This document shows, piece after piece, positions 19,650-33,074 of a stretch of 33,074 nucleotides of DNA; the stretch's first letter is position 1, and each line of letters begins with the position of its first letter. The stretch is from the IMG/VR virus record IMGVR_UViG_2737471830_000002; one strand, 5' to 3'. The stretch comes from a virus (lineage: Duplodnaviria; Heunggongvirae; Uroviricota; Caudoviricetes). Under the pieces are notes generated by a model. That model saw only the letters and a program-made list of their open reading frames with translations. It was not told the origin of the DNA and did no database searches. Made by a program: the position numbers and the translations under genes.

Positions 19650-19834
19650 GGCCTTCCCCTTTTGCCCTGTTTGACCATCAGGACGCCGTTAACTATTACG
19701 TGACGCTCGCCTTTGCTGTCTCGGTTGTACTTGAGCACTGTTCCTCTTGCGCAGGAAAGCATCCTCGCCACTTCGGTCTGATTGCCTCGTGTCTGGATAA
19801 GAAGCTCTGGTATCGTTTGAATTGTGGCGTTCAT
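19646..19834 (-). CDS. ninH: NinH-like protein
   Basis: 62 aa; YGNQTEVARMLSCARGTVLKY...VNGVLMV resembles lambda NinH. Confidence 0.65.
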   Translation of the reverse strand: MNATIQTIPELLIQTRGNQTEVARMLSCARGTVLKYNRDSKGERHVIVNGVLMVKQGKRGRP

Positions 19835-20193
19835 ACGTTCTCCAGTTCGGTGATTTTTATTCCAAGCCTTCCGCCTGGTACTTTCACACCACGAATTACG
19901 CGAATGTCATCGAATTGCTCGTCGTCTTCCGCAAATCCGGCGTGGATAAGGGAGTCGAGTAAACCTTTCAGGATGTTATCGAGGTCGCGGCGGCGGGAGT
20001 CTGGAACGTCTGCGATGACTTTGATGCGGAGTCGTGATTTGGTGAAAATGTCTAACTTAAGTTGGCGGATGATTTGCTGAACGTCTTTTCGGTATTTCTG
20101 GCCTTTATCGCTGATGTAGTATTGGCTTCCCCGTCTTCGCCAGTAGGTATTCACCGATGGCGGGTATGGAAGCACAAACTGATATTCGTTCAT
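19831..20193 (-). CDS. rusA: RusA-family Holliday junction resolvase
   Basis: 120 aa; LPYPPSVN...DSRRRDLDNILKGLLDSL...GGRLGIKITE matches the RusA catalytic core. Confidence 0.8.
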   Translation of the reverse strand: MNEYQFVLPYPPSVNTYWRRRGSQYYISDKGQKYRKDVQQIIRQLKLDIFTKSRLRIKVIADVPDSRRRDLDNILKGLLDSLIHAGFAEDDEQFDDIRVIRGVKVPGGRLGIKITELENV

Positions 20194-20480
20194 GACTTAA
20201 TCTTCCCCTCCTTCAGCAGTATCGCCTGCGTCCTGATCACGCCTTCGAGGTGGTAAAGTCTGGCGTCTTTGTTGTCGAGGTTATGGGTGCGTCGGTCGAT
20301 TTCATCGTGACACGCGCTACAAGCCCATGCGCCGATCAGGTCGTCAGGCTTCATTCCCGTTCCGCAAATTCCAGCCATCCGGTAATGTGCCAGAACTGTA
20401 GTTTCAGGATTGCCATTGCATACGCCGTAAATACGTACCTGGCATTCTCTGCCGCGTGCTTCTTTGCGTAGGTTAGCCAT
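20190..20480 (-). CDS. YbcO-like (DUF1364) protein
   Basis: 96 aa, Cys-rich; lies immediately upstream of rusA as ybcO does in the DLP12 prophage. Confidence 0.55.
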   Translation of the reverse strand: MANLRKEARGRECQVRIYGVCNGNPETTVLAHYRMAGICGTGMKPDDLIGAWACSACHDEIDRRTHNLDNKDARLYHLEGVIRTQAILLKEGKIKS

Positions 20481-21202
20481 TAAGCAGCCTCCCCTGTTAC
20501 TTTCAGCATTCCGTTATCGAGAAGCTTTCTGGTCAGCCACTGTTGACCACGCCCGGTGATTTTTGTGGTGAACGATATCTGTATTCCGTGATTTGTGTTG
20601 ACCGCTGTTTCTTTCACTGTGAAATAGCCGCGATCCATATATTCCTGCATTGGCACATTGCGCCGGGAACCTGAAGCAATAAGGATTTTGTGATCGCGCA
20701 TCCATGCAAACAGTTTGTTTGGACCAATACCAACAACCTTTGCATAGTTTCCAATCAAAATTCCGCTGGCCTCGCCAACGCGATCGGCAAACTCAACTTT
20801 AGGTGCGGCAATTGCGAGCTGGTTTTCCAGTTGCATTTTCTGCTCAGCAAGATCAGCAGCAAGGCGCAACGCTTCTGGTAGCGTTTTGGGGATATTAACC
20901 GCAGTTTCTTCAAGCTCTCGCCAACGGTCAACAAGACGAGCGGTGAATTCCGGCGACAACTGGGCAACAACGACAATACTGTCTCGCTTACCTTGTTCGC
21001 CTTCGAAGACGTAATGCTCGTACTGAACATTGAACCCTAAGTTATTGATTCTTTCGAAAACCTCAATTTGAGGAAGCCGGATAACACCATTTTTAGCCAG
21101 CGTTTCGATGGTACGCTTCACATTGTCATGACGCTTACCAACCAACTCAGCGATTTCAATGCTTGTCATTTTGATGGCATTGCCATTTATTAACTCATTC
21201 AT
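20480..21202 (-). CDS. Rha/Roi-like phage regulatory protein with antirepressor (KilA-C/ANT) C-terminal domain
   Basis: 240 aa; N-terminal HTH-like segment MTSIEIAELVGKRHDNVKRTIETLAK; located in the nin region where roi sits in HK022/HK97. Confidence 0.6.
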   Translation of the reverse strand: MNELINGNAIKMTSIEIAELVGKRHDNVKRTIETLAKNGVIRLPQIEVFERINNLGFNVQYEHYVFEGEQGKRDSIVVVAQLSPEFTARLVDRWRELEETAVNIPKTLPEALRLAADLAEQKMQLENQLAIAAPKVEFADRVGEASGILIGNYAKVVGIGPNKLFAWMRDHKILIASGSRRNVPMQEYMDRGYFTVKETAVNTNHGIQISFTTKITGRGQQWLTRKLLDNGMLKVTGEAA

Positions 21203-21365
21203 CGTCTTCTTCCTCGTACATTGAGCTATTCGGATCGCTCATCAGTTCTGCGCAGCAGTGCTCACACACGTGAACTTCCAGCACATGCAGCTTCTGACCG
21301 CAGTTAGCGCACGTTAAAGCCCGCTCGACGCTTTCTTGTTCGTAACTTCGATTTGGGTCAATCAC
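21195..21365 (-). CDS. ninF: NinF-like zinc-ribbon protein
   Basis: [35 protein letters not shown] with CxxC...CxxCC; likely GTG start at 21365 overlapping the ninE stop (ORF track extends to 21407). Confidence 0.6.
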
Positions 21366-21544
21366 CTTGTATTCCTCGCACGATGTCTTAGCCACCGGAT
21401 ATCCCACAGGTGAGCCGTGTAGTTGAAGGTTTTTACGTCAGATTCTTTTGGGATTGGCTTGCGTTTATTTCTGGAGCGTTTCGTTGGAAGGTATTTGCAG
21501 TTTTCGCAGATGATGTCGGTGATACTTCGTCACTGTCGTCTCAT
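21362..21544 (-). pseudogene. ninE: ninE-like gene with in-frame TGA at codon 5
   Basis: ATG at 21544 overlaps the ninB stop (ATGA); reads MRRQ, TGA at 21532..21530, then 55 sense codons ([55 protein letters not shown]) ending in a stop overlapping ninF. Confidence 0.55.
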
Positions 21545-21981
21545 GCCGCCCTGTCTCCCCATCGCGCTTTCCATTCGAGAGCCAGTCGCGCTTCGTCTGA
21601 CCACTTAACGCCACGCTCTGTACCGAATGCCTGTATAAGCTCTAATAGCTCCGCAAATTCGCTTACCCGCATCCTGCTGGTTGACTGGCCTATTACCACA
21701 AAGCCATTCCCGGCAAGGTTAGGAACAACGTCCTGCTGCTTTAATGCTGCGGTAAACACACACTTCCAGCTTTCTGCATCCAGCCAGCGACCATGCCATT
21801 CAACCTGACGAGAGACGTCACCAAGGCAAGCCCAAAGCTTCCGATTCTGGTCTAAGCTGCGGTTGCGCTCCTGAATGATCACTACGATTGGCTTGGTTGG
21901 GTCTGGAAGGATTTGCTGTACTGCGTGAATAGCGTTTTGCTGATGTGCTGGAGATCGAATTTCAAAGGTTAGTTTTTTCAT
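21541..21981 (-). CDS. ninB: NinB (Orf-family recombination mediator)
   Basis: MKKLTFEIRSPAHQQNAIHAVQQILPDPTKPIVV... near-identical to lambda NinB; ATG at 21981. Confidence 0.85.
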   Translation of the reverse strand: MKKLTFEIRSPAHQQNAIHAVQQILPDPTKPIVVIIQERNRSLDQNRKLWACLGDVSRQVEWHGRWLDAESWKCVFTAALKQQDVVPNLAGNGFVVIGQSTSRMRVSEFAELLELIQAFGTERGVKWSDEARLALEWKARWGDRAA

Positions 21982-21997
21982 GACTTCCCTCTCCCCC

Positions 21998-22028
21998 AAA
22001 TAAAAAGGCCTGCGATTACCAGCAGGCC
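21998..22028 (-). terminator. tR2-like intrinsic terminator between helicase and ninB
   Basis: Minus-strand hairpin AGGCCTGC-tggtaatc-GCAGGCCT followed by TTTTTATTT. Confidence 0.6.
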
Positions 22029-25119: not shown

Positions 25120-25836
25120 ATGGAAAATAAAAAATCACTGACGACAGAACAGCTCGAAGACGCTAAGCGGCTTAAGGCTTTGTATGAGTCAAAAAAGAAA
25201 GAATTGGGAATAACCCAATACTCAATTGCTGATGAACTGGGTATCACCCAAGGAGCGGTAGGGCATTATCTTAATGGCAGAAACGCGCTAAACGTTGAGG
25301 TTGCATCTGGTTTTGCACGATTGTTGCAAGTCTCAATTGCTGATTTTAGCCAGTCAATTGCTGCCAAGGTTGCAGAACAGGCAGAAAGCCTTAAGAGCGA
25401 TGCCAACGTAAGGTATGCAGGGGAATACAGAGCAGGAAAGAGGTATCCGGTGTTAAGCAGTATCCAGGCTGGCTCGTGGTGTGAAGCATGCGAACCATAC
25501 ACCATTAAAGACATAGATGTTTGGCTTGAGTCTGACGCGCATATTCAAGGTAATGCGTTCTGGCTTAAAGTGGAAGGTGATTCAATGACGGCACCGGTTG
25601 GGTTAAGCATTCCAGAGGGAACATTCGTTCTTTTCGATACCGGAAGGGAGGCGATCAACGGCAGCTTGGTCATAGCAAAACTTTCTGACTCTAACGAAGC
25701 AACATTCAAGAAGCTGATAATCGACGGCGGAAATAAATACCTCAAGGGACTTAATCCTGCATGGCCTCTCGTGCCAATCAATGGAAACTGCAAGATTATA
25801 GGCGTTGCAATTGAGACAAAACTAAGGCTGGTTTGA
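25120..25836 (+). CDS. cI: CI repressor (HTH N-domain plus S24 LexA-like autopeptidase C-domain)
   Basis: 238 aa; LTTEQLEDAKRLKALYESKKKELGITQ...AFWLKVEGDSMTAP...FKKLI parallels lambda CI including the cleavage-domain motifs. Confidence 0.9.
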   Translation: MENKKSLTTEQLEDAKRLKALYESKKKELGITQYSIADELGITQGAVGHYLNGRNALNVEVASGFARLLQVSIADFSQSIAAKVAEQAESLKSDANVRYAGEYRAGKRYPVLSSIQAGSWCEACEPYTIKDIDVWLESDAHIQGNAFWLKVEGDSMTAPVGLSIPEGTFVLFDTGREAINGSLVIAKLSDSNEATFKKLIIDGGNKYLKGLNPAWPLVPINGNCKIIGVAIETKLRLV

Positions 25837-25853
25837 TCACGCAAGGGGCGATT

Positions 25854-26222
25854 ATGGTTGGAACCGCTATAGCAAGCTTTTTTGGGATGTTGGCAATCTC
25901 GACAATTTACGGCTTAGCGCATGCTTTTATTGCGAAATCTCTATCAGAAAAAATAAGCCAGGCTTGGGCGCATAGATCAGCTCGTTTCATGATTCTGGTG
26001 ATCATAGCAATACAAGGGATATCTGCATTTATCCTCTATGGTTCAAGCTTATACCTGTTGTATCAAGGCGCGACATTTACGCCTTACACCAGTGATTACG
26101 GAACGCTATACGATGGTAGTGAAGACATCTCTATGGCTTGGATCGTCTTTGGTTTATCTATGGCCGTGTCTGTTGTAGCAGACATCATTAAGGTAATTCT
26201 CGTCTTAACCTTCGCTGACTAA
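25854..26222 (+). CDS. Small integral membrane protein co-transcribed with cI; candidate superinfection-exclusion/abortive-infection factor
   Basis: 122 aa from ATG at 25854 (AAGGGG RBS), 18 nt after the cI stop; three or four predicted TM segments; no similarity recognised. Confidence 0.55.
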   Translation: MVGTAIASFFGMLAISTIYGLAHAFIAKSLSEKISQAWAHRSARFMILVIIAIQGISAFILYGSSLYLLYQGATFTPYTSDYGTLYDGSEDISMAWIVFGLSMAVSVVADIIKVILVLTFAD

Positions 26223-26590: not shown

Positions 26591-26896
26591 ATGACAGTAG
26601 TCATTACTTATCTGGCTGACGATAACGCCAGAAATCGCCGCAGAGCACGCAGACAGGCTCAACGTGAACAGGCAATGCAAGAACAGCGATTGGCACGAAA
26701 AATTGCGCTAAAGCTCTCTGGTTGCGTCAGAGCAGATAAAGCAGCATCACTCGGAAGCCTTCGCTGCAAGAAGGCAGAAGAAGTCGAGAGTAAACAGAAC
26801 CATATTTACTACCGCAAGCCACGCAGTGAAATGGGTGTGACCTGTTCAGGCCGCCAGAAGCAACGCGGAAAATCAATTCCAGCTTATTACGATTGA
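26591..26896 (+). CDS. N: N-type transcription antiterminator
   Basis: Arginine-rich motif NARNRRRARRQAQREQ at the N-terminus; C-terminus ...KPRSEMGVTCSGRQKQRGKSIP parallels lambda N; GGAGG RBS. Confidence 0.8.
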   Translation: MTVVITYLADDNARNRRRARRQAQREQAMQEQRLARKIALKLSGCVRADKAASLGSLRCKKAEEVESKQNHIYYRKPRSEMGVTCSGRQKQRGKSIPAYYD

Positions 26897-27917: not shown

Positions 27918-28054
27918 CCATTAATCACCAGATGCTTCGTGCTGCACAGAACAAAGCAGTAATAGCCAGATTTATTGGTGATTCAAAAATGTGGCTTGAA
28001 GCAAATAAAGCGATGAAATCAGCTATCAACCTTCCGTGGTATCGCAGGAAATGA
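27902..28054 (+). CDS. kil: Kil-like small protein
   Basis: 50 aa; start overlaps the cIII-like stop, GGAGG RBS; VIARFIGDSKMWLEANKAMKSAI resembles the lambda Kil core as recalled. Confidence 0.4.
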   Translation: MRNEIAINHQMLRAAQNKAVIARFIGDSKMWLEANKAMKSAINLPWYRRK

Positions 28055-28129
28055 GTTTTACAGATAACTGGTCAGACGAAGAATTCATTCGTCAGATGAA
28101 AGATTTAATCGGTAACGAAGGAGATATTC

Positions 28130-28300
28130 ATGTCACTTGCAACCACAGTGAAGGAGAGCAAGTTACAGAGACGCATGTACACGCAGAAAGCTCTCTGGTA
28201 TCGCCATAATGGTGACCGCGAAGGAATGCGGGTATGCCTTAATTTGTCCCGAGTCGAAGTATTAAATCAGCGTTATTTCCTTGGGCCGTGTCCATTCTGA
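28130..28300 (+). CDS. Hypothetical small protein (56 aa); alternative overlapping ORF at 28051..28209
   Basis: ATG at 28130 with AAGGAG RBS, ends 8 nt before the annealase start; which of the two overlapping frames is expressed cannot be decided from sequence alone. Confidence 0.3.
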   Translation: MSLATTVKESKLQRRMYTQKALWYRHNGDREGMRVCLNLSRVEVLNQRYFLGPCPF

Positions 28301-28308
28301 GGTGAATT

Positions 28309-29016
28309 ATGGATTTGAACAAATTCGATGAGCCATTCAGCCCTGAAGATATCGAATGGCGAATACAGCAAAGCGGTAAAACACGCGATGGCAAGGTGTG
28401 GGCTATGGTGCTGGCTTATGTCACGAACCGGGCAATCATGAAACGCCTGGACGATGTTTGCGGCAAAGCAGGATGGCGCAATGAATACCGCGATATTCCC
28501 AACAACGGCGGAGTTGAATGCGGCATATCAATCAAGATTGATTCCGAATGGGTAACCAAATGGGATGCTGCTGAAAACACGCAGGTAGAAGCCGTCAAAG
28601 GTGGTCGTTCCGGTGCAATGAAGCGCGCTGCCGTTCAGTGGGGAATCGGTCGGTATCTGTATAACCTTGAGGAAGGTTTCGCACAAACATCTCTCGATAA
28701 AAAGCAGGGGTGGCACAGGGCAAAACTGAAGGATGGAACAGGATTTTACTGGCTCCCTCCATCGCTGCCGGGATGGGCAATCCCAGCATCAGATAACAAA
28801 CCATCACCAGAAAATACCAACCAGAAATCTCCATCGGTTGACTGCGAACAAATCCTGAAAGACTTCAGCGATTATGCGTCAACAGAAACTGACAAGAAAA
28901 AACTCATCGAGCGTTATCAGCGTGACTGGCAATTAATGGCTGGCAACGAGGAGGCGCAGGCTAAATGCGTTCAGGTAATGAACATCAGAGTTAACGAACT
29001 AAAACAGGCGGCATAA
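28309..29016 (+). CDS. Rad52-family single-strand annealing protein (Sak-like recombinase)
   Basis: 235 aa; GGRSGAMKRAAVQWGIGRYLYNL resembles the Rad52 N-domain signature; immediately precedes ssb. Confidence 0.6.
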   Translation: MDLNKFDEPFSPEDIEWRIQQSGKTRDGKVWAMVLAYVTNRAIMKRLDDVCGKAGWRNEYRDIPNNGGVECGISIKIDSEWVTKWDAAENTQVEAVKGGRSGAMKRAAVQWGIGRYLYNLEEGFAQTSLDKKQGWHRAKLKDGTGFYWLPPSLPGWAIPASDNKPSPENTNQKSPSVDCEQILKDFSDYASTETDKKKLIERYQRDWQLMAGNEEAQAKCVQVMNIRVNELKQAA

Positions 29017-29523
29017 ATGGCAAGCAGAGGCGTAAATAAGGTGATTATCCTTGGTCGGGTAGGACAAGACCCGGAAGTTCGATACTCACCATCAGGAACA
29101 GCGTTCGCTAACCTGACAATAGCCACGTCAGAACAATGGCGAGATAAAAATACTGGCGAGCAAAAGGAATTGACTGAATGGCATCGTGTTGCTGTATCCG
29201 GGAAACTGGCTGAGGTCGTGGGGCAGTATGTGAAAAAAGGTGATCAGATTTATTTCGAGGGAATGCTGAGAACCAGAAAGTGGAAAGACCAGTCAGGGCA
29301 AGACCGTTACACAACCGAGGTTCATGTCGGAATTAATGGCGTGATGCAAATGCTTGGCGGCATTGGCGACAGCAAACAACAAGCAGCCAGCAAGCAATCA
29401 CAGAAGCCACAGCAGCAATCATCACCAGCACAACACAACGAACCTCCGATGGATTTTGACGACGATATACCCTTTGCACCAGTAACTCTCCCCTTCCCTC
29501 GTCACGCTATTCACGCAATTTAA
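29017..29523 (+). CDS. ssb: Single-stranded DNA-binding protein with C-terminal extension
   Basis: OB-fold N-terminus [44 protein letters not shown]...; acidic tip [11 protein letters not shown] is followed by [15 protein letters not shown] before the stop. Confidence 0.9.
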
Positions 29524-29536
29524 TCAGGAGAAAATC

Positions 29537-29833
29537 ATGCCAGCGCCTCTGTATGGTGCGGATGACCCGCGCCGCTGTTCCGGCAATTCCATATCGGAGG
29601 TGCTGGATAAATTCAGAAAAAACTACGACCTGATAATGTCGCTACCGCAGGAAACGAAAGAGGAAAAGGAATTTCGCCATTGTATATGGCTTGCAGAGAA
29701 AGAAGAACGCGAGCGAATTTACCAGACATCAATCCGACCATTCCGCAAAGCCACATATACCCACTTCCCTGAATATATCGACCCGCGCCTGCGTAATTAC
29801 CGCTCACGCTATGGCGCTATCAGTAATGACTGA
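29537..29833 (+). CDS. Hypothetical protein (98 aa)
   Basis: ORF with GGAG RBS following ssb. Confidence 0.45.
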
Positions 29834-29843
29834 GGAATTTACC

Positions 29844-30008
29844 ATGAGAGGACTTGCATACAATCCCGGCATTCTTCCGGCAGAAATGATTATTCGCCAA
29901 CGCGTAAAGCCAATGCCATCGAGAGAGGAATTGCTTAAGAGAAATAGTTTCGGTTCTGTTAATGACAACAAATATCTGAATGCGATGTGGCGGAGTGGGA
30001 AGAAATGA
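29844..30008 (+). CDS. Hypothetical small protein (54 aa)
   Basis: ATG at 29844 with GAGGAA RBS; stop overlaps the next gene start (ATGA). Confidence 0.4.
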
Positions 30009-31100: not shown

Positions 31101-31301
31101 ATGCAACACGAACTACAGCCTGATTCACTGGTTGATTTGAAATTCATCATGGCTGATACTGGCTTTGGTAAAACCTTCATCTACGACCGGATTAAGTCCG
31201 GCGACCTGCCAAAAGCCAAAGTTATCCACGGGCGAGCAAGATGGTTATATCGTGACCATTGTGAATTCAAAAATAAGCTCTTAAGCCGCGCTAATGGGTA
31301 A
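31101..31301 (+). CDS. torI: Excisionase / recombination directionality factor, AlpA/TorI family
   Basis: 66 aa, MQHELQPDSLVDLKFIMADTGFGKTFIYDRIKSGDLPKAKVIHGRARWLYRDHCEFKNKLL; winged-helix AlpA-type; matches E. coli TorI as recalled. Confidence 0.75.
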   Translation: MQHELQPDSLVDLKFIMADTGFGKTFIYDRIKSGDLPKAKVIHGRARWLYRDHCEFKNKLLSRANG

Positions 31302-31374
31302 AATAGCGGGTAAAATATTTTTCACATCTAAAAAATACCATTCCAATCAATCCCCTGCCGCTTCAAGTAGATGT

Positions 31375-31389
31375 CTGCAGGGGACACCA
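31375..31389 (+). other. Attachment-site core: tRNA 3'-end fragment CTGCAGGGGACACCA (likely argW-derived)
   Basis: Acceptor-stem 3' strand plus discriminator plus CCA with no upstream tRNA body; phage genes to the left, host-like sequence to the right. Confidence 0.55.
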
Positions 31390-31549
31390 GATACCCTTCA
31401 AACGAAATCTACCTTCACTCCGTAAAAGATGGGTTTGGCAGCATGCCCTATATCTACTCATTTTTACTGCAACAGGTTGAAATCTCAGCACTGTCAGAAA
31501 GCGTTGATGACTAAACAGCCCTGGGCCGGGCGATGTAACCATCACACAG

Positions 31550-31748
31550 AATCCTGATAGCGAAATATGGCGTGACTCGATACTTCACTCCGCAATGCAT
31601 TCCTTGATGAATTCGCATGCCCGTGATACACGGGACAGGTCGCTGAATGACGACAATGTCCTGGAAATCAGCGAACCGCGTATCCGGAGTACATTTGAGC
31701 GACTGTACCAGAACATGAATGAGGCGTTTGGATTAGGTGATTATTAGC
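31550..31748 (+). other. Open frame without convincing start; possible gene remnant in the host flank
   Basis: About 66 sense codons ending ...RLYQNMNEAFGLGDY then stop; not identified. Confidence 0.2.
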
Positions 31749-31826
31749 AGGGCTAAGCATTTTAGTATTATTATTTTCCGGTTGAGGGATATGGAGATAT
31801 CGACAACAACCGGAAAAAGTTTACGT

Positions 31827-33074
31827 CTATATTGCTGAAGGTACAGGCGTTTCCATCACTATTTGCTCGCGTTTTTTACTCAGGAAGAAAATGCCAAATA
31901 GCAACATCATGCAGACAATACCCGAAATTGCGAAGAAAACTGTCTGGTAGCCTGCGTGGTCAAAGAGTATCCCAGTCGGCGTTGAAAGCAGCACAATCCC
32001 AAGCGAACTGGCAATTTGAAAACCAATCAGAAAGATCGTCGACGACAGGCGCTTATCAAAGTTTGCCACGCTGTATTTGAAGACGGATATGACACAAAGT
32101 GGAACCTCAATGGCATGTAACAGCTTCACTAATGAAATAATCCAGGGGTTAACGAACAGCGCGCAGGAAAGGATACGCAACGCCATAATCACAACACCGA
32201 TAAGTAATGCATTTTTTGGCCCTACCCGATTCACAAAGAACGGAATAATCGCCATGCACAGCGCTTCGAGTACCACCTGGAATGAGTTGAGATAACCATA
32301 CAGGCGCGTTCCTACATCGTGTGATTCGAATAAACCTGCATAAAAGACAGGAAAAAGTTGTTGATCAAAAATGTTATAGAAAGACCACGTCCCAACAATA
32401 AATATGACGAAAACCCAGAAGTTTCGATCCTTGAAAACTGCGATAAAATCCTCTTTTTTTACCCCTCCCGCATCCGCCGCTACGCACTGGTGATCCTTAT
32501 CTTTAAAACACATGTTGATCATCATAAATACAGCGCCAAATAGCGAGACCAACCAGAAGTTGATATGGGGACTGATACTAAAAAATATGCCGGCAAAGAA
32601 CGCGCCAATAGCATAGCCAAAAGATCCCCAGGCGCGCGCTGTTCCATATTCGAAATGAAAATTTCGCGCCATTTTTTCGGTGAAGCTGTCAAGCAAACCG
32701 CATCCCGCCAGATACCCCAGGCCAAAAAAGAGCGCCCCCAGAATTAGACCTACAGAAAAATTGCTTTGCAGTAACGGTTCATAAACGTAAATCATAAACG
32801 GTCCGGTCAAGACCAGGATAAAACTCATACACCAGATGAGCGGTTTCTTCAGACCGAGTTTATCCTGAACGATGCCGTAGAACATCATAAATAGAATGCT
32901 GGTAAACTGGTTGACCGAATAAAGTGTACCTAATTCCGTCCCTGTCAACCCTAGATGTCCTTTCAGCCAAATAGCGTATAACGACCACCACAGCGACCAG
33001 GAAATAAAAAAGAGAAATGAGTAACTGGATGCAAAACGATAGTACGCATTTCTGAATGGAATATTCAGTGCCAT
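31827..33074 (-). CDS. cscB: LacY-family oligosaccharide:H+ symporter, probably sucrose permease CscB
   Basis: 415 aa, 12-TM MFS; aligns along its length with LacY; the start codon is the last three bases of the window. Confidence 0.8.
   Translation of the reverse strand: MALNIPFRNAYYRFASSYSFLFFISWSLWWSLYAIWLKGHLGLTGTELGTLYSVNQFTSILFMMFYGIVQDKLGLKKPLIWCMSFILVLTGPFMIYVYEPLLQSNFSVGLILGALFFGLGYLAGCGLLDSFTEKMARNFHFEYGTARAWGSFGYAIGAFFAGIFFSISPHINFWLVSLFGAVFMMINMCFKDKDHQCVAADAGGVKKEDFIAVFKDRNFWVFVIFIVGTWSFYNIFDQQLFPVFYAGLFESHDVGTRLYGYLNSFQVVLEALCMAIIPFFVNRVGPKNALLIGVVIMALRILSCALFVNPWIISLVKLLHAIEVPLCVISVFKYSVANFDKRLSSTIFLIGFQIASSLGIVLLSTPTGILFDHAGYQTVFFAISGIVCMMLLFGIFFLSKKREQIVMETPVPSAI

Follow-up and report, generated by a model that had tools for sequence, protein, structure and literature searches.

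A Rad52/Sak-type annealase with an Erf-type C-terminal domain in an HK75-type recombination module of a P22-like Escherichia coli prophage

The recombination modules closest to the one described here were recently classified by Zheng, Casjens, Davidson, Amundsen & Smith (2025; PMC12315714), who sorted 325 lambdoid phages by the content of their Rec modules. Modules that are positive for an anti-RecBCD function, an SSB and a SAP and negative for a nuclease were assigned to the HK75 type (27 of the 325 phages), and the ES18 type was defined as the HK75 type with a nuclease added (25 of the 325). The SSBs of Sf6 and ES18 were stated in that report not to have been studied experimentally, and the shuffling of partner-interaction domains was considered likely, yet beyond its scope (PMC12315714). 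For Abc2, the anti-RecBCD protein of P22, the structure of the RecBCD-Abc2 complex was reported by Wilkinson et al. (2022; PMC9836394), which places Abc2 on RecC's Chi-recognition domains and Pro68 of Abc2 in the active site of PpiB. In the published model Abc2 does not block RecBCD but alters it and thereby supplies the missing exonuclease, and phages were pointed out which encode Abc2 and apparently possess no exonuclease (PMC9836394). Murphy's model, as Wilkinson et al. outline it, takes the hijacked RecBCD to resemble a constitutively Chi-activated enzyme whose RecA-loading function may be redirected to the phage recombinase; loading of the annealase by RecBCD-Abc2 is a proposal even for P22 (PMC9836394). 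Work with HK620 revealed that the cognate SSB stimulates the annealase in vivo as well as in vitro via its last six residues (Hutinet et al. 2018; PMC5928155). Finally, the epsilon34 genome paper noted a chimeric protein, in that the name 'Erf' of gene 36 rests on the C-terminal 56 aa only (PMC2629481); the 'Erf domain swap' is published. Domain shuffling itself is likewise already published, and the mosaic character ascribed to the present locus by a preliminary description, made from the DNA letters alone, is correct but was in print long before.

The stretch of DNA analysed here (33,074 nt; IMG/VR record IMGVR_UViG_2737471830_000002), henceforth called the window, carries on its plus strand an ATG..TAA open reading frame of 235 aa (28309..29016) which is predicted to encode a single-strand annealing protein, below referred to as the annealase. 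Its residues 4-136 match the Pfam family Rad52_Rad22 (PF04098) with E=5e-26 and 91.9 bits, the gathering cut-off being 20.3 bits, and the match spans positions 7-153 of the 153 profile positions. Against the same profile, the Sak protein (ORF252) of Lactococcus phage ul36, which is the prototype of the RAD52 homologs in bacteriophages, obtains a similar score (95.4 bits); BLAST aligns it with annealase residues 6-159 (E=9e-67), with 59% of 155 aa identical and 74% positive. The Sak/Rad52-like annealase which the preliminary description had placed here was thus recognized correctly, and its suggested HMM search gave Rad52_Rad22 and not ERF. The C-terminal part has another origin, since BLASTP relates residues 157-235 to residues 134-205 of P22 Erf (63% identity, E=2e-30), and the last 59 aa taken alone are 75% identical to the Erf C-terminal domain. 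Three parts are hence delineated on the plus strand: aa 1-160 (nt 28309-28788) make up an N-terminal annealing domain of Rad52/Sak type, about aa 161-178 form a linker predicted to be disordered, and aa 179-234 (nt about 28843-29010) constitute a C-terminal domain of Erf type with three helices.

The Erf-type tail accounts for the labels under which the protein is found. In PHROGs it matches phrog_1097, an 'Erf-like ssDNA annealing protein', with E=3.5e-130, and GenBank records often name its relatives 'erf' or 'putative DNA-binding protein Erf'. Taken literally, these labels, and the fact that the final 60-79 aa are 63-75% identical to P22 Erf, would make the annealase an Erf-family recombinase, a reading that is hardly credible any more: the ERF family (PF04404), against which P22 Erf itself scores 157 bits, does not match the annealase at E<=0.1, BLASTP detects no resemblance to the N-terminal domain of P22 Erf, and the N-terminal domain belongs to PF04098 and is 59% identical to ul36 Sak. 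As in the case of epsilon34 gene 36 (PMC2629481), the 'Erf-like' label results from the tail only, and on the Pfam and BLAST comparisons Erf identity is already refuted at the family level. Judged by sequence and modelled fold, the annealase belongs to the Rad52/Sak family of SSAPs and bears a tail of Erf type.

For the fold, an AlphaFold2 model was derived from 35 homologs (mean pLDDT 83.2), which shows an alpha/beta N-terminal domain (aa 1-160) followed by the linker, of low confidence at aa 163-175, and a three-helix C-terminal unit (aa 179-234). When this model was compared with the PDB by Foldseek, ranks 1-17 were occupied exclusively by Mgm101 and RAD52 chains (E between 2e-4 and 7e-3, with probabilities of 0.96 or more), after which the list jumps to E=0.17; the N-terminal domain is hence predicted to adopt the Rad52/Mgm101/Sak fold. 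For the C-terminal unit generic helical bundles were the sole structural matches. Sequence searches of the PDB with the annealase and with a 35-sequence profile retrieved no Rad52 or Sak structure, and hhalign of the annealase profile against residues 1-212 of human RAD52 gave nothing; the assignment to the family is therefore based on the Pfam match, ul36 Sak and the fold, and no claims on individual DNA-binding residues are made. A WW-domain-like match (Prp40, E=0.1) at residues 129-164 was rejected as chance, as these residues belong to the conserved Sak core, with which ul36 Sak aligns up to residue 159. In the model, residues 129-164 form small strands packed within the N-terminal domain. 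Ring formation, ssDNA binding and ATP-independent annealing would follow from the likeness to ul36 Sak; a literature search found no biochemical or genetic test of the window annealase or of any enterobacterial Sak-type member.

Directly downstream, the annealase TAA abuts the ATG of ssb (TAAATG junction), and this arrangement suggests that ssb is probably translationally coupled to the annealase. The gene (29017..29523, plus strand) encodes a phage SSB of 168 aa and of bacterial type, here termed SSB-1 type (PF00436, E=1.6e-36; TIGR00621, 167 bits), which confirms, far beyond chance, the annealase-ssb pairing proposed before. The TIGR00621 model ends at residue 153, and in the window SSB the canonical MDFDDDIPF motif is succeeded by 15 further residues; the same number of extra residues past the normally terminal DDDIPF is present in the SSB-1 proteins of HK75, mEpX2 and epsilon34. 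A spacer of 13 nt, which holds an AGGAG ribosome-binding site, separates ssb from abc2 (29537..29833, plus strand), whose 98-aa product is matched by the anti-RecBCD family PF11043 over its full length (E=1e-62) and by phrog_656. It is 93% identical to P22 Abc2, and Pro68 is kept in the alignment. Here the preliminary description requires revision: no Gam-like gene had been apparent to it, yet abc2, 13 nt past ssb, is the functional counterpart of Gam, so that the module is more than an annealase and an SSB devoid of control over the processing of ends. Next follows a DUF2737 gene (29844..30008, plus strand; phrog_1117, E=2e-38), which is homologous to P22 orf56 (74% identity by tblastn). No NCBIfam model matches the annealase, Abc2 or the small ORFs. 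Annealase and ssb lie downstream of N-like, cIII and kil genes in the early-left (pL) operon.

The statement that no exonuclease is visible holds as well, as no tested ORF of the pL operon, from the N-like gene at 26591 to the excisionase at 31301, matches a nuclease family in Pfam and/or PHROGs. Families of lambda-type Exo (YqaJ-type 5'-3' exonuclease) and Gam were likewise without a match among the tested pL-operon ORFs, which bears out the distinction from lambda exo-bet-gam drawn previously. In mEpX2, mEp235, epsilon34 and g341c the position between ssb and abc2 is occupied by a DnaQ-like gene (182 aa, PF16473), for which the 13-nt spacer of the window leaves no room. A homolog of P22 abc1 is absent from the whole window (tblastn, best E=2.4). 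Further recombination functions reside in the nin region, outside the module: NinB, a lambda Orf-like recombination mediator (21541..21999, minus strand; PF05772, E=8e-54), the Holliday-junction resolvase RusA (19831..20193, minus strand; PF05866, E=1.1e-16) and, just upstream of RusA, the putative nuclease YbcO (20190..20480; PF07102, E=1.8e-44). The window contains no Chi site, with 0.9 expected by chance; this is not significant alone and is weakly consistent with reports that phages encoding Abc2 avoid Chi. A scan of the window with ARAGORN detected no tRNA, so that an attachment site is not assignable from a tRNA.

By its content the module is of the HK75 type, with Abc2 present, contiguous SSB and SAP genes in the early-left operon and no nuclease; it lacks the Exo and Gam that define lambda Red, and from the P22 set of abc1, abc2 and an ERF annealase only abc2 is found. 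The annealase is 100% identical to a 'Rad52/22 family' protein of mEp235 and mEpX2; its identity is 99.6% with the HK75 and IME10 proteins and about 92% with ES18 gp49, epsilon34 gp36 and ST64T Orf-235. The module's gene order is common to HK75, mEp235, mEpX2 and ECP1 at a protein identity of 97-100%. Homologs of the annealase number 5,594 in the protein database at E<=1e-3, and among 5,426 complete E. coli genomes there are 332 in which 80% or more of the 1.9-kb module, used as query, is covered. PGAP names its products 'Rad52/Rad22 family DNA repair protein', 'ssb' and 'phage anti-RecBCD protein'. The module is thus an already known, widespread and correctly auto-annotated HK75-type set of a P22-like E. 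coli prophage, and beyond correct annotation it is of little importance.

Amongst named systems, HK75 itself and ECP1 share with the window the order kil, arf-like gene, annealase, ssb, abc2 and DUF2737, whereby HK75 is 97% identical to the window in DNA over about 2-2.2 kb; the modules of mEp235 and mEpX2 are alike, plus the extra nuclease gene. Outside the module the likeness ends, as HK75 is a siphovirus with other virion, immunity and integration modules, whereas the window encodes a P22-like tailspike and a TorI-type excisionase. The arf-erf-abc1-abc2 module of P22 occupies the same pL-operon position after c3 and kil, likewise has no phage exonuclease, and shares with the window abc2, the annealase C-terminal domain and orf56/DUF2737 after abc2; it differs in its ERF core (PF04404 versus PF04098) and in having abc1 where the window has ssb. 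Having been set apart from P22 erf-abc in the preliminary description, the module therefore deserves a divided verdict: the annealase core does differ, abc1 is lacking and any similarity to arf is weak at most, but both modules have abc2 and the C-terminal domain in common, and the module is a close relative of P22 erf-abc. ul36 resembles the window in the Sak annealing domain and the ssb immediately downstream, but the C-terminal ~90 aa of its Sak are unrelated, its host is Gram-positive, and no abc2 is present in the portion of ul36 examined. HK620 (hkaM-sak4-ssb-abc2) has the same architecture, the same Abc2 and a cognate SSB with an acidic tail; unlike the window, its annealase Sak4 is a RecA-core ATPase (PF13479) without an Erf-type C-domain, and its SSB is non-homologous. 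Lambda Red (exo-bet-gam) is comparable in operon position and in combining a Rad52-superfamily annealase with control over RecBCD, whereas the window has no Exo and no Gam, possesses a phage SSB and is proposed to re-purpose RecBCD instead of blocking it. The Redbeta C-terminal domain, which binds Exo, is a small helical partner-binding unit and in this resembles the C-domain of the window annealase. Binding of SSB to lambda Beta is cited by Zheng et al. (PMC12315714).

To place the module in a wider context, a survey was made of those 80 IMG/VR loci whose Abc2 sequences are most similar to that of the window, a sample biased by containing the closest Abc2 relatives only, and the 68 with at least 2.5 kb upstream of abc2 were classified. 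Annealase, SSB and abc2 occur together in 67 of the 68, in three co-varying sequence types. An ERF core is combined in 42 loci with a divergent C-domain (type B, 37% identical to that of the window) and a 127-aa SSB ending DDSIPF (SSB-1b), with nothing extra; a Sak core is combined in 20 with a C-domain as in the window (type A) and SSB-1, a DnaQ-like nuclease being present in eight; and a Sak4 core is combined in five with an SSB ending NDYPPF (SSB-2), with no C-domain and nothing extra. The one remaining locus has a DnaQ-like nuclease and no recognised annealase, C-domain or SSB. The exact layout of the window is found in 12 of the 20 Sak-core loci, the Erf-type C-domain in 62 of the 68, and P22 abc1 in none of them. 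A class of Erf-core modules without SSB was considered and rejected: it arose from the limited sensitivity of tblastn, as the gene of 127 aa proved to be an SSB (phrog_44, E=1e-27, DDSIPF end). DUF2737 follows abc2 in nearly all of the 80 loci; small ORF, annealase, SSB, abc2 and DUF2737 make up the general plan of abc2 loci. Among species-representative genomes, the full-length annealase with both N- and C-domain is confined to Enterobacterales, and the Sak core alone occurs at 55-61% identity in Gemmatimonadota, Desulfobacterota, Bacillota and other phyla. Annealase and SSB are neighbours in about 16 of the 21 loci from species representatives of Enterobacterales, abc2 being detected only in an E. 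coli locus, and the C-domain is present in non-Escherichia Enterobacterales loci without detectable abc2. The pair sak-ssb, adjacent also in ul36, is thus the conserved core, and Abc2 is an add-on seen in phages of Escherichia, Salmonella and Shigella.

The mechanism proposed for the module starts out from what was obtained here, namely the identity and order of the genes, the domain architecture, the fold and the distribution, and draws its activities, namely annealing, the hijack of RecBCD by Abc2, stimulation by SSB and the role of the C-domain, from the homologs ul36 Sak, P22 Erf with Abc2 and the Sak4-SSB pair of HK620. The annealase is very probably the strand-annealing protein of an HK75-type module in which Abc2-hijacked RecBCD replaces the exonuclease. 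Expressed in the order of the pL operon, a small acidic accessory protein, the annealase, SSB, Abc2 and the DUF2737 protein would be produced. Abc2 would then bind RecC of the host RecBCD and render the enzyme blind to Chi and biased towards degradation of the 5' strand. Resection of ends by RecBCD-Abc2 would yield 3' single-stranded tails of the kind lambda makes with Exo, and it is for this reason that no phage exonuclease should be needed; the proposed takeover of RecBCD would so explain the missing exonuclease. The phage SSB would coat the resulting ssDNA, and the Rad52/Sak N-domain, presumably as an oligomeric ring, would bind it and anneal it to its complement at another end or at a replication fork, the expected outcome being RecA-independent recombination and concatemer formation. 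The Erf-type C-domain would serve as a portable partner-binding module, most likely for the acidic tail of SSB. The extra DnaQ-like or HNH nuclease in the modules of epsilon34, mEpX2 and ES18 implies that dispensing with a nuclease is not universal.

A possible, if rather unlikely, alternative is that the annealase-SSB pair acts alone at forks and gaps, by oligo-type annealing to lagging-strand ssDNA and template switching, while Abc2 only shields linear DNA from RecBCD and is uncoupled from the annealase. It finds support in sak-ssb being the conserved core, adjacent in ul36, with abc2 detected only in an E. coli locus, and the occurrence of the pair without detectable abc2 in other Enterobacterales indicates that the annealase does not depend on Abc2. 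In HK620, moreover, ssb restored full oligo recombineering and abc2 added nothing (PMC5928155), so that the contribution of Abc2 would be confined to dsDNA ends. Against such an uncoupling, abc2 lies at most 13 nt from ssb in one operon in Escherichia, Salmonella and Shigella phages, and the genetics of P22 and of lambda Bet with Abc2 favour RecBCD-dependent, Chi-independent recombination, as cited in two papers (PMC5928155, PMC9836394). Action at forks and gaps and the hijack of RecBCD are not mutually exclusive.

Two further explanations depart from the annealase-with-hijacked-RecBCD reading in what they assume of the protein or of the prophage. That a Sak-type protein is mainly a cofactor of host RecA which stimulates strand exchange, and no autonomous annealase, goes back to biochemistry on lactococcal Sak and Sak3, which De Paepe et al. 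(2014) cite; it appears improbable here, because the Rad52-like phage recombinases that they tested, Redbeta, RecT (Rac, phi80) and Erf (D3), are RecA-independent in vivo (De Paepe et al. 2014) and Abc2 is proposed to divert RecBCD from RecA loading (PMC9836394). That the module is an inactive remnant of a decaying prophage might be read from the end of the window inside the tailspike gene and from the missing integrase beside the excisionase gene. The excisionase is, however, of TorI type, and the window encodes head, tail, lysis, replication and immunity functions. In TorI-type systems (KplE1/HK620) the integrase presumably lies at the other prophage end. With module ORFs that are intact and 97-100% identical to those of the plaque-forming phages HK75, mEp235 and mEpX2, decay is highly improbable.

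As to the partner of the C-domain, it may tentatively be pictured as a portable adaptor for the SSB acidic tail whose sequence type is possibly matched to the tail, although we hold this finer assignment to be somewhat doubtful. Within the abc2-centred sample each type of C-domain goes with its own type of SSB, A with SSB-1 and B with SSB-1b; C- and N-domain types are fully linked in that sample and hence inseparable there. Type B, in the sampled Erf-core modules, which we read as HK97-like, is paired with an SSB-1b ending YDDSIPF. Type A is also present in P22, which has no phage SSB and where the partner is presumably the host SSB; the tail of E. coli SSB ends in the same motif that SSB-1 carries. 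An adaptor role of this kind would also fit the binding of SSB to lambda Beta. The use of the C-domain as a handle for loading by RecBCD-Abc2 was examined by co-occurrence, and the domain was judged not to be Abc2-specific, as it occurs without detectable abc2 in Enterobacterales and as modules of the HK620 type have abc2 without a C-domain. The locus survey thus suggests the SSB tail rather than Abc2 as partner. Host partners of SSB are thought to need the carboxylate of its terminal Phe. If the adaptor picture is true, the conserved 15-residue extension after DDDIPF would bury the Phe carboxylate in SSB-1 and make this SSB 'private' to the phage annealase.

Across the survey, lambdoid modules present themselves as interchangeable parts, in which three unrelated or very distant annealase cores, three SSB types and an optional nuclease are combined with one Abc2. 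The idea of employing the annealase as a recombineering tool, also raised in the preliminary description, is reasonable but not new: large SSAP libraries were screened, albeit without co-expressed cognate SSBs, and neither the Rad52 nor the Sak family was significantly enriched in the E. coli screen of an SSAP library that Wannier et al. (2020) describe in their preprint, for which reason expectations should be modest. When the annealase is cloned for this purpose, its cognate SSB should be co-expressed and, for dsDNA in recBCD+ cells, Abc2 be added.

Upstream of the annealase, the position of P22 arf is taken by a small acidic ORF (28051..28209, plus strand) with a putative accessory function, which matches phrog_2123 over residues 6-57 (E=1.4e-41). 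It was listed from a GTG at 28036, but the ATG at 28051 fits the start of the PHROG profile. With P22 Arf only the 7-aa 'SDEEFI' motif is in common, and the two proteins are at most weakly similar. The ORF lies upstream of the annealase in 60 of the 62 abc2 loci in which the latter protein has a C-domain of Erf type. It overlaps by 80 nt, in a different frame, with a second small ORF of 56 aa (28130..28300, plus strand; phrog_1723, E=9.4e-36), which is annotated in mEpX2 (F855_gp34) and in Sf6 (gene 29).

The annealing core of the Sak-type annealase (aa 1-160 of the 235-aa product of 28309..29016) was found to be retained at 55-61% identity in homologous loci of Gemmatimonadota, Desulfobacterota, Bacillota, Campylobacterota and candidate phyla (L108-L165, taken from GTDB species-representative genomes). 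Since these identities extend across phyla and are unusually high for a phage protein, either strong constraint on the core or its wide horizontal spread is suggested. Within the annealase, phmmer matched aa 129-164 (window 28693-28800) to the Prp40 WW domain over GWHRAKLKDGTGFYWLPPSLPGWAIP. This match was marginal (E=0.1), the same segment is kept in ul36 Sak, the RAD52-like homolog of a lactococcal phage, and residues W148, P151, L153, P154, W156 and P159 were identified to be invariant in an alignment of 35 sequences, hence the segment is probably a Sak-specific structural element and not a WW domain.

A second type of module was identified in E. coli, which is exemplified by the IMG/VR locus L007 (2989-3977) and 41 similar IMG/VR loci and in which the annealase possesses an Erf core. 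Here, the N-domain shares 92% identity with P22 Erf, the C-domain is divergent, being 37% identical to that of the window annealase, and the SSB comprises 127 aa and ends in DDSIPF. This SSB occupies the place which in P22 is the abc1 slot. Within the abc2-centred IMG/VR sample, the types of C-domain, N-domain and SSB were found to co-vary perfectly. Upstream of the window annealase, two small ORFs, assigned to PHROG 2123 (28036/28051..28209) and PHROG 1723 (28130..28300), lie in different frames and overlap by 80 nt (window 28036-28300); both PHROGs carry the label 'recombinase', the basis of which is not evident. The first of these ORFs encodes an acidic product with an 'SDEEFI' motif in common with P22 Arf and occurs with Sak-core as well as with Erf-core annealases (60 of 62 loci).

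The canonical tail motif MDFDDDIPF is present in the window phage SSB, yet it is internal rather than C-terminal, as it is followed by a 15-aa extension (aa 154-168, window 29476-29520) which is identical among the SSBs of the window, mEpX2, HK75 and epsilon34, and the TIGR00621 model stops at aa 153. Partner binding by the E. coli SSB needs the carboxylate of the terminal Phe, and as a consequence the extension may alter which partners are recruited by the phage SSB.

Two copies of the enterobacterial phage module were encountered on contigs of other assignment, namely with 100% protein identity in an 'Actinomycetes bacterium' MAG (L086, JAFADF010000066.1) and with 78% in 'Chryseobacterium sp. 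18061' (L090, CACSKA010000001.1); both contigs probably derive from mis-binned or contaminated assemblies.

Further recombination functions locate to the nin region (19831-21999, all genes on the minus strand), which encodes NinB/Orf at 21541..21999, YbcO, a putative nuclease, at 20190..20480, and the resolvase RusA at 19831..20193; a Rha/KilAC antirepressor-like gene (20480..21202) is also present there. The Chi sequence (GCTGGTGG) occurs on neither strand of the 33-kb window, with 0.9 sites expected from shuffles, which is not significant alone and is consistent with the Chi avoidance reported for Abc2-encoding phages.

The plus-strand gene 25833-26222 (phrog_6534) encodes a predicted membrane protein of 129 aa and occupies the slot flanked by the genes for the cI-like repressor (25120..25836) and the N-like protein. 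As lambda carries rexAB in this slot, the product is a candidate exclusion or defence moron expressed in the lysogen.

At one prophage end, an excisionase-like gene (31101..31301), annotated as TorI in matching E. coli genomes, directly adjoins the host cscB-like MFS transporter gene (31827..33074, minus strand); no integrase lies between the two (window 31101-31827), and no tRNA was found by ARAGORN. In the KplE1/HK620-type arrangement int and xis reside at opposite prophage ends, and a TorI-type xis beside a host gene without an integrase fits this arrangement. The window starts inside a minus-strand gene (1-1257) for a product in which the head-binding domain of the P22 tailspike was recognised (PF09008, E=1e-67), by which the prophage is classified as a P22-like podovirus having its recombination module in common with siphoviruses such as HK75.
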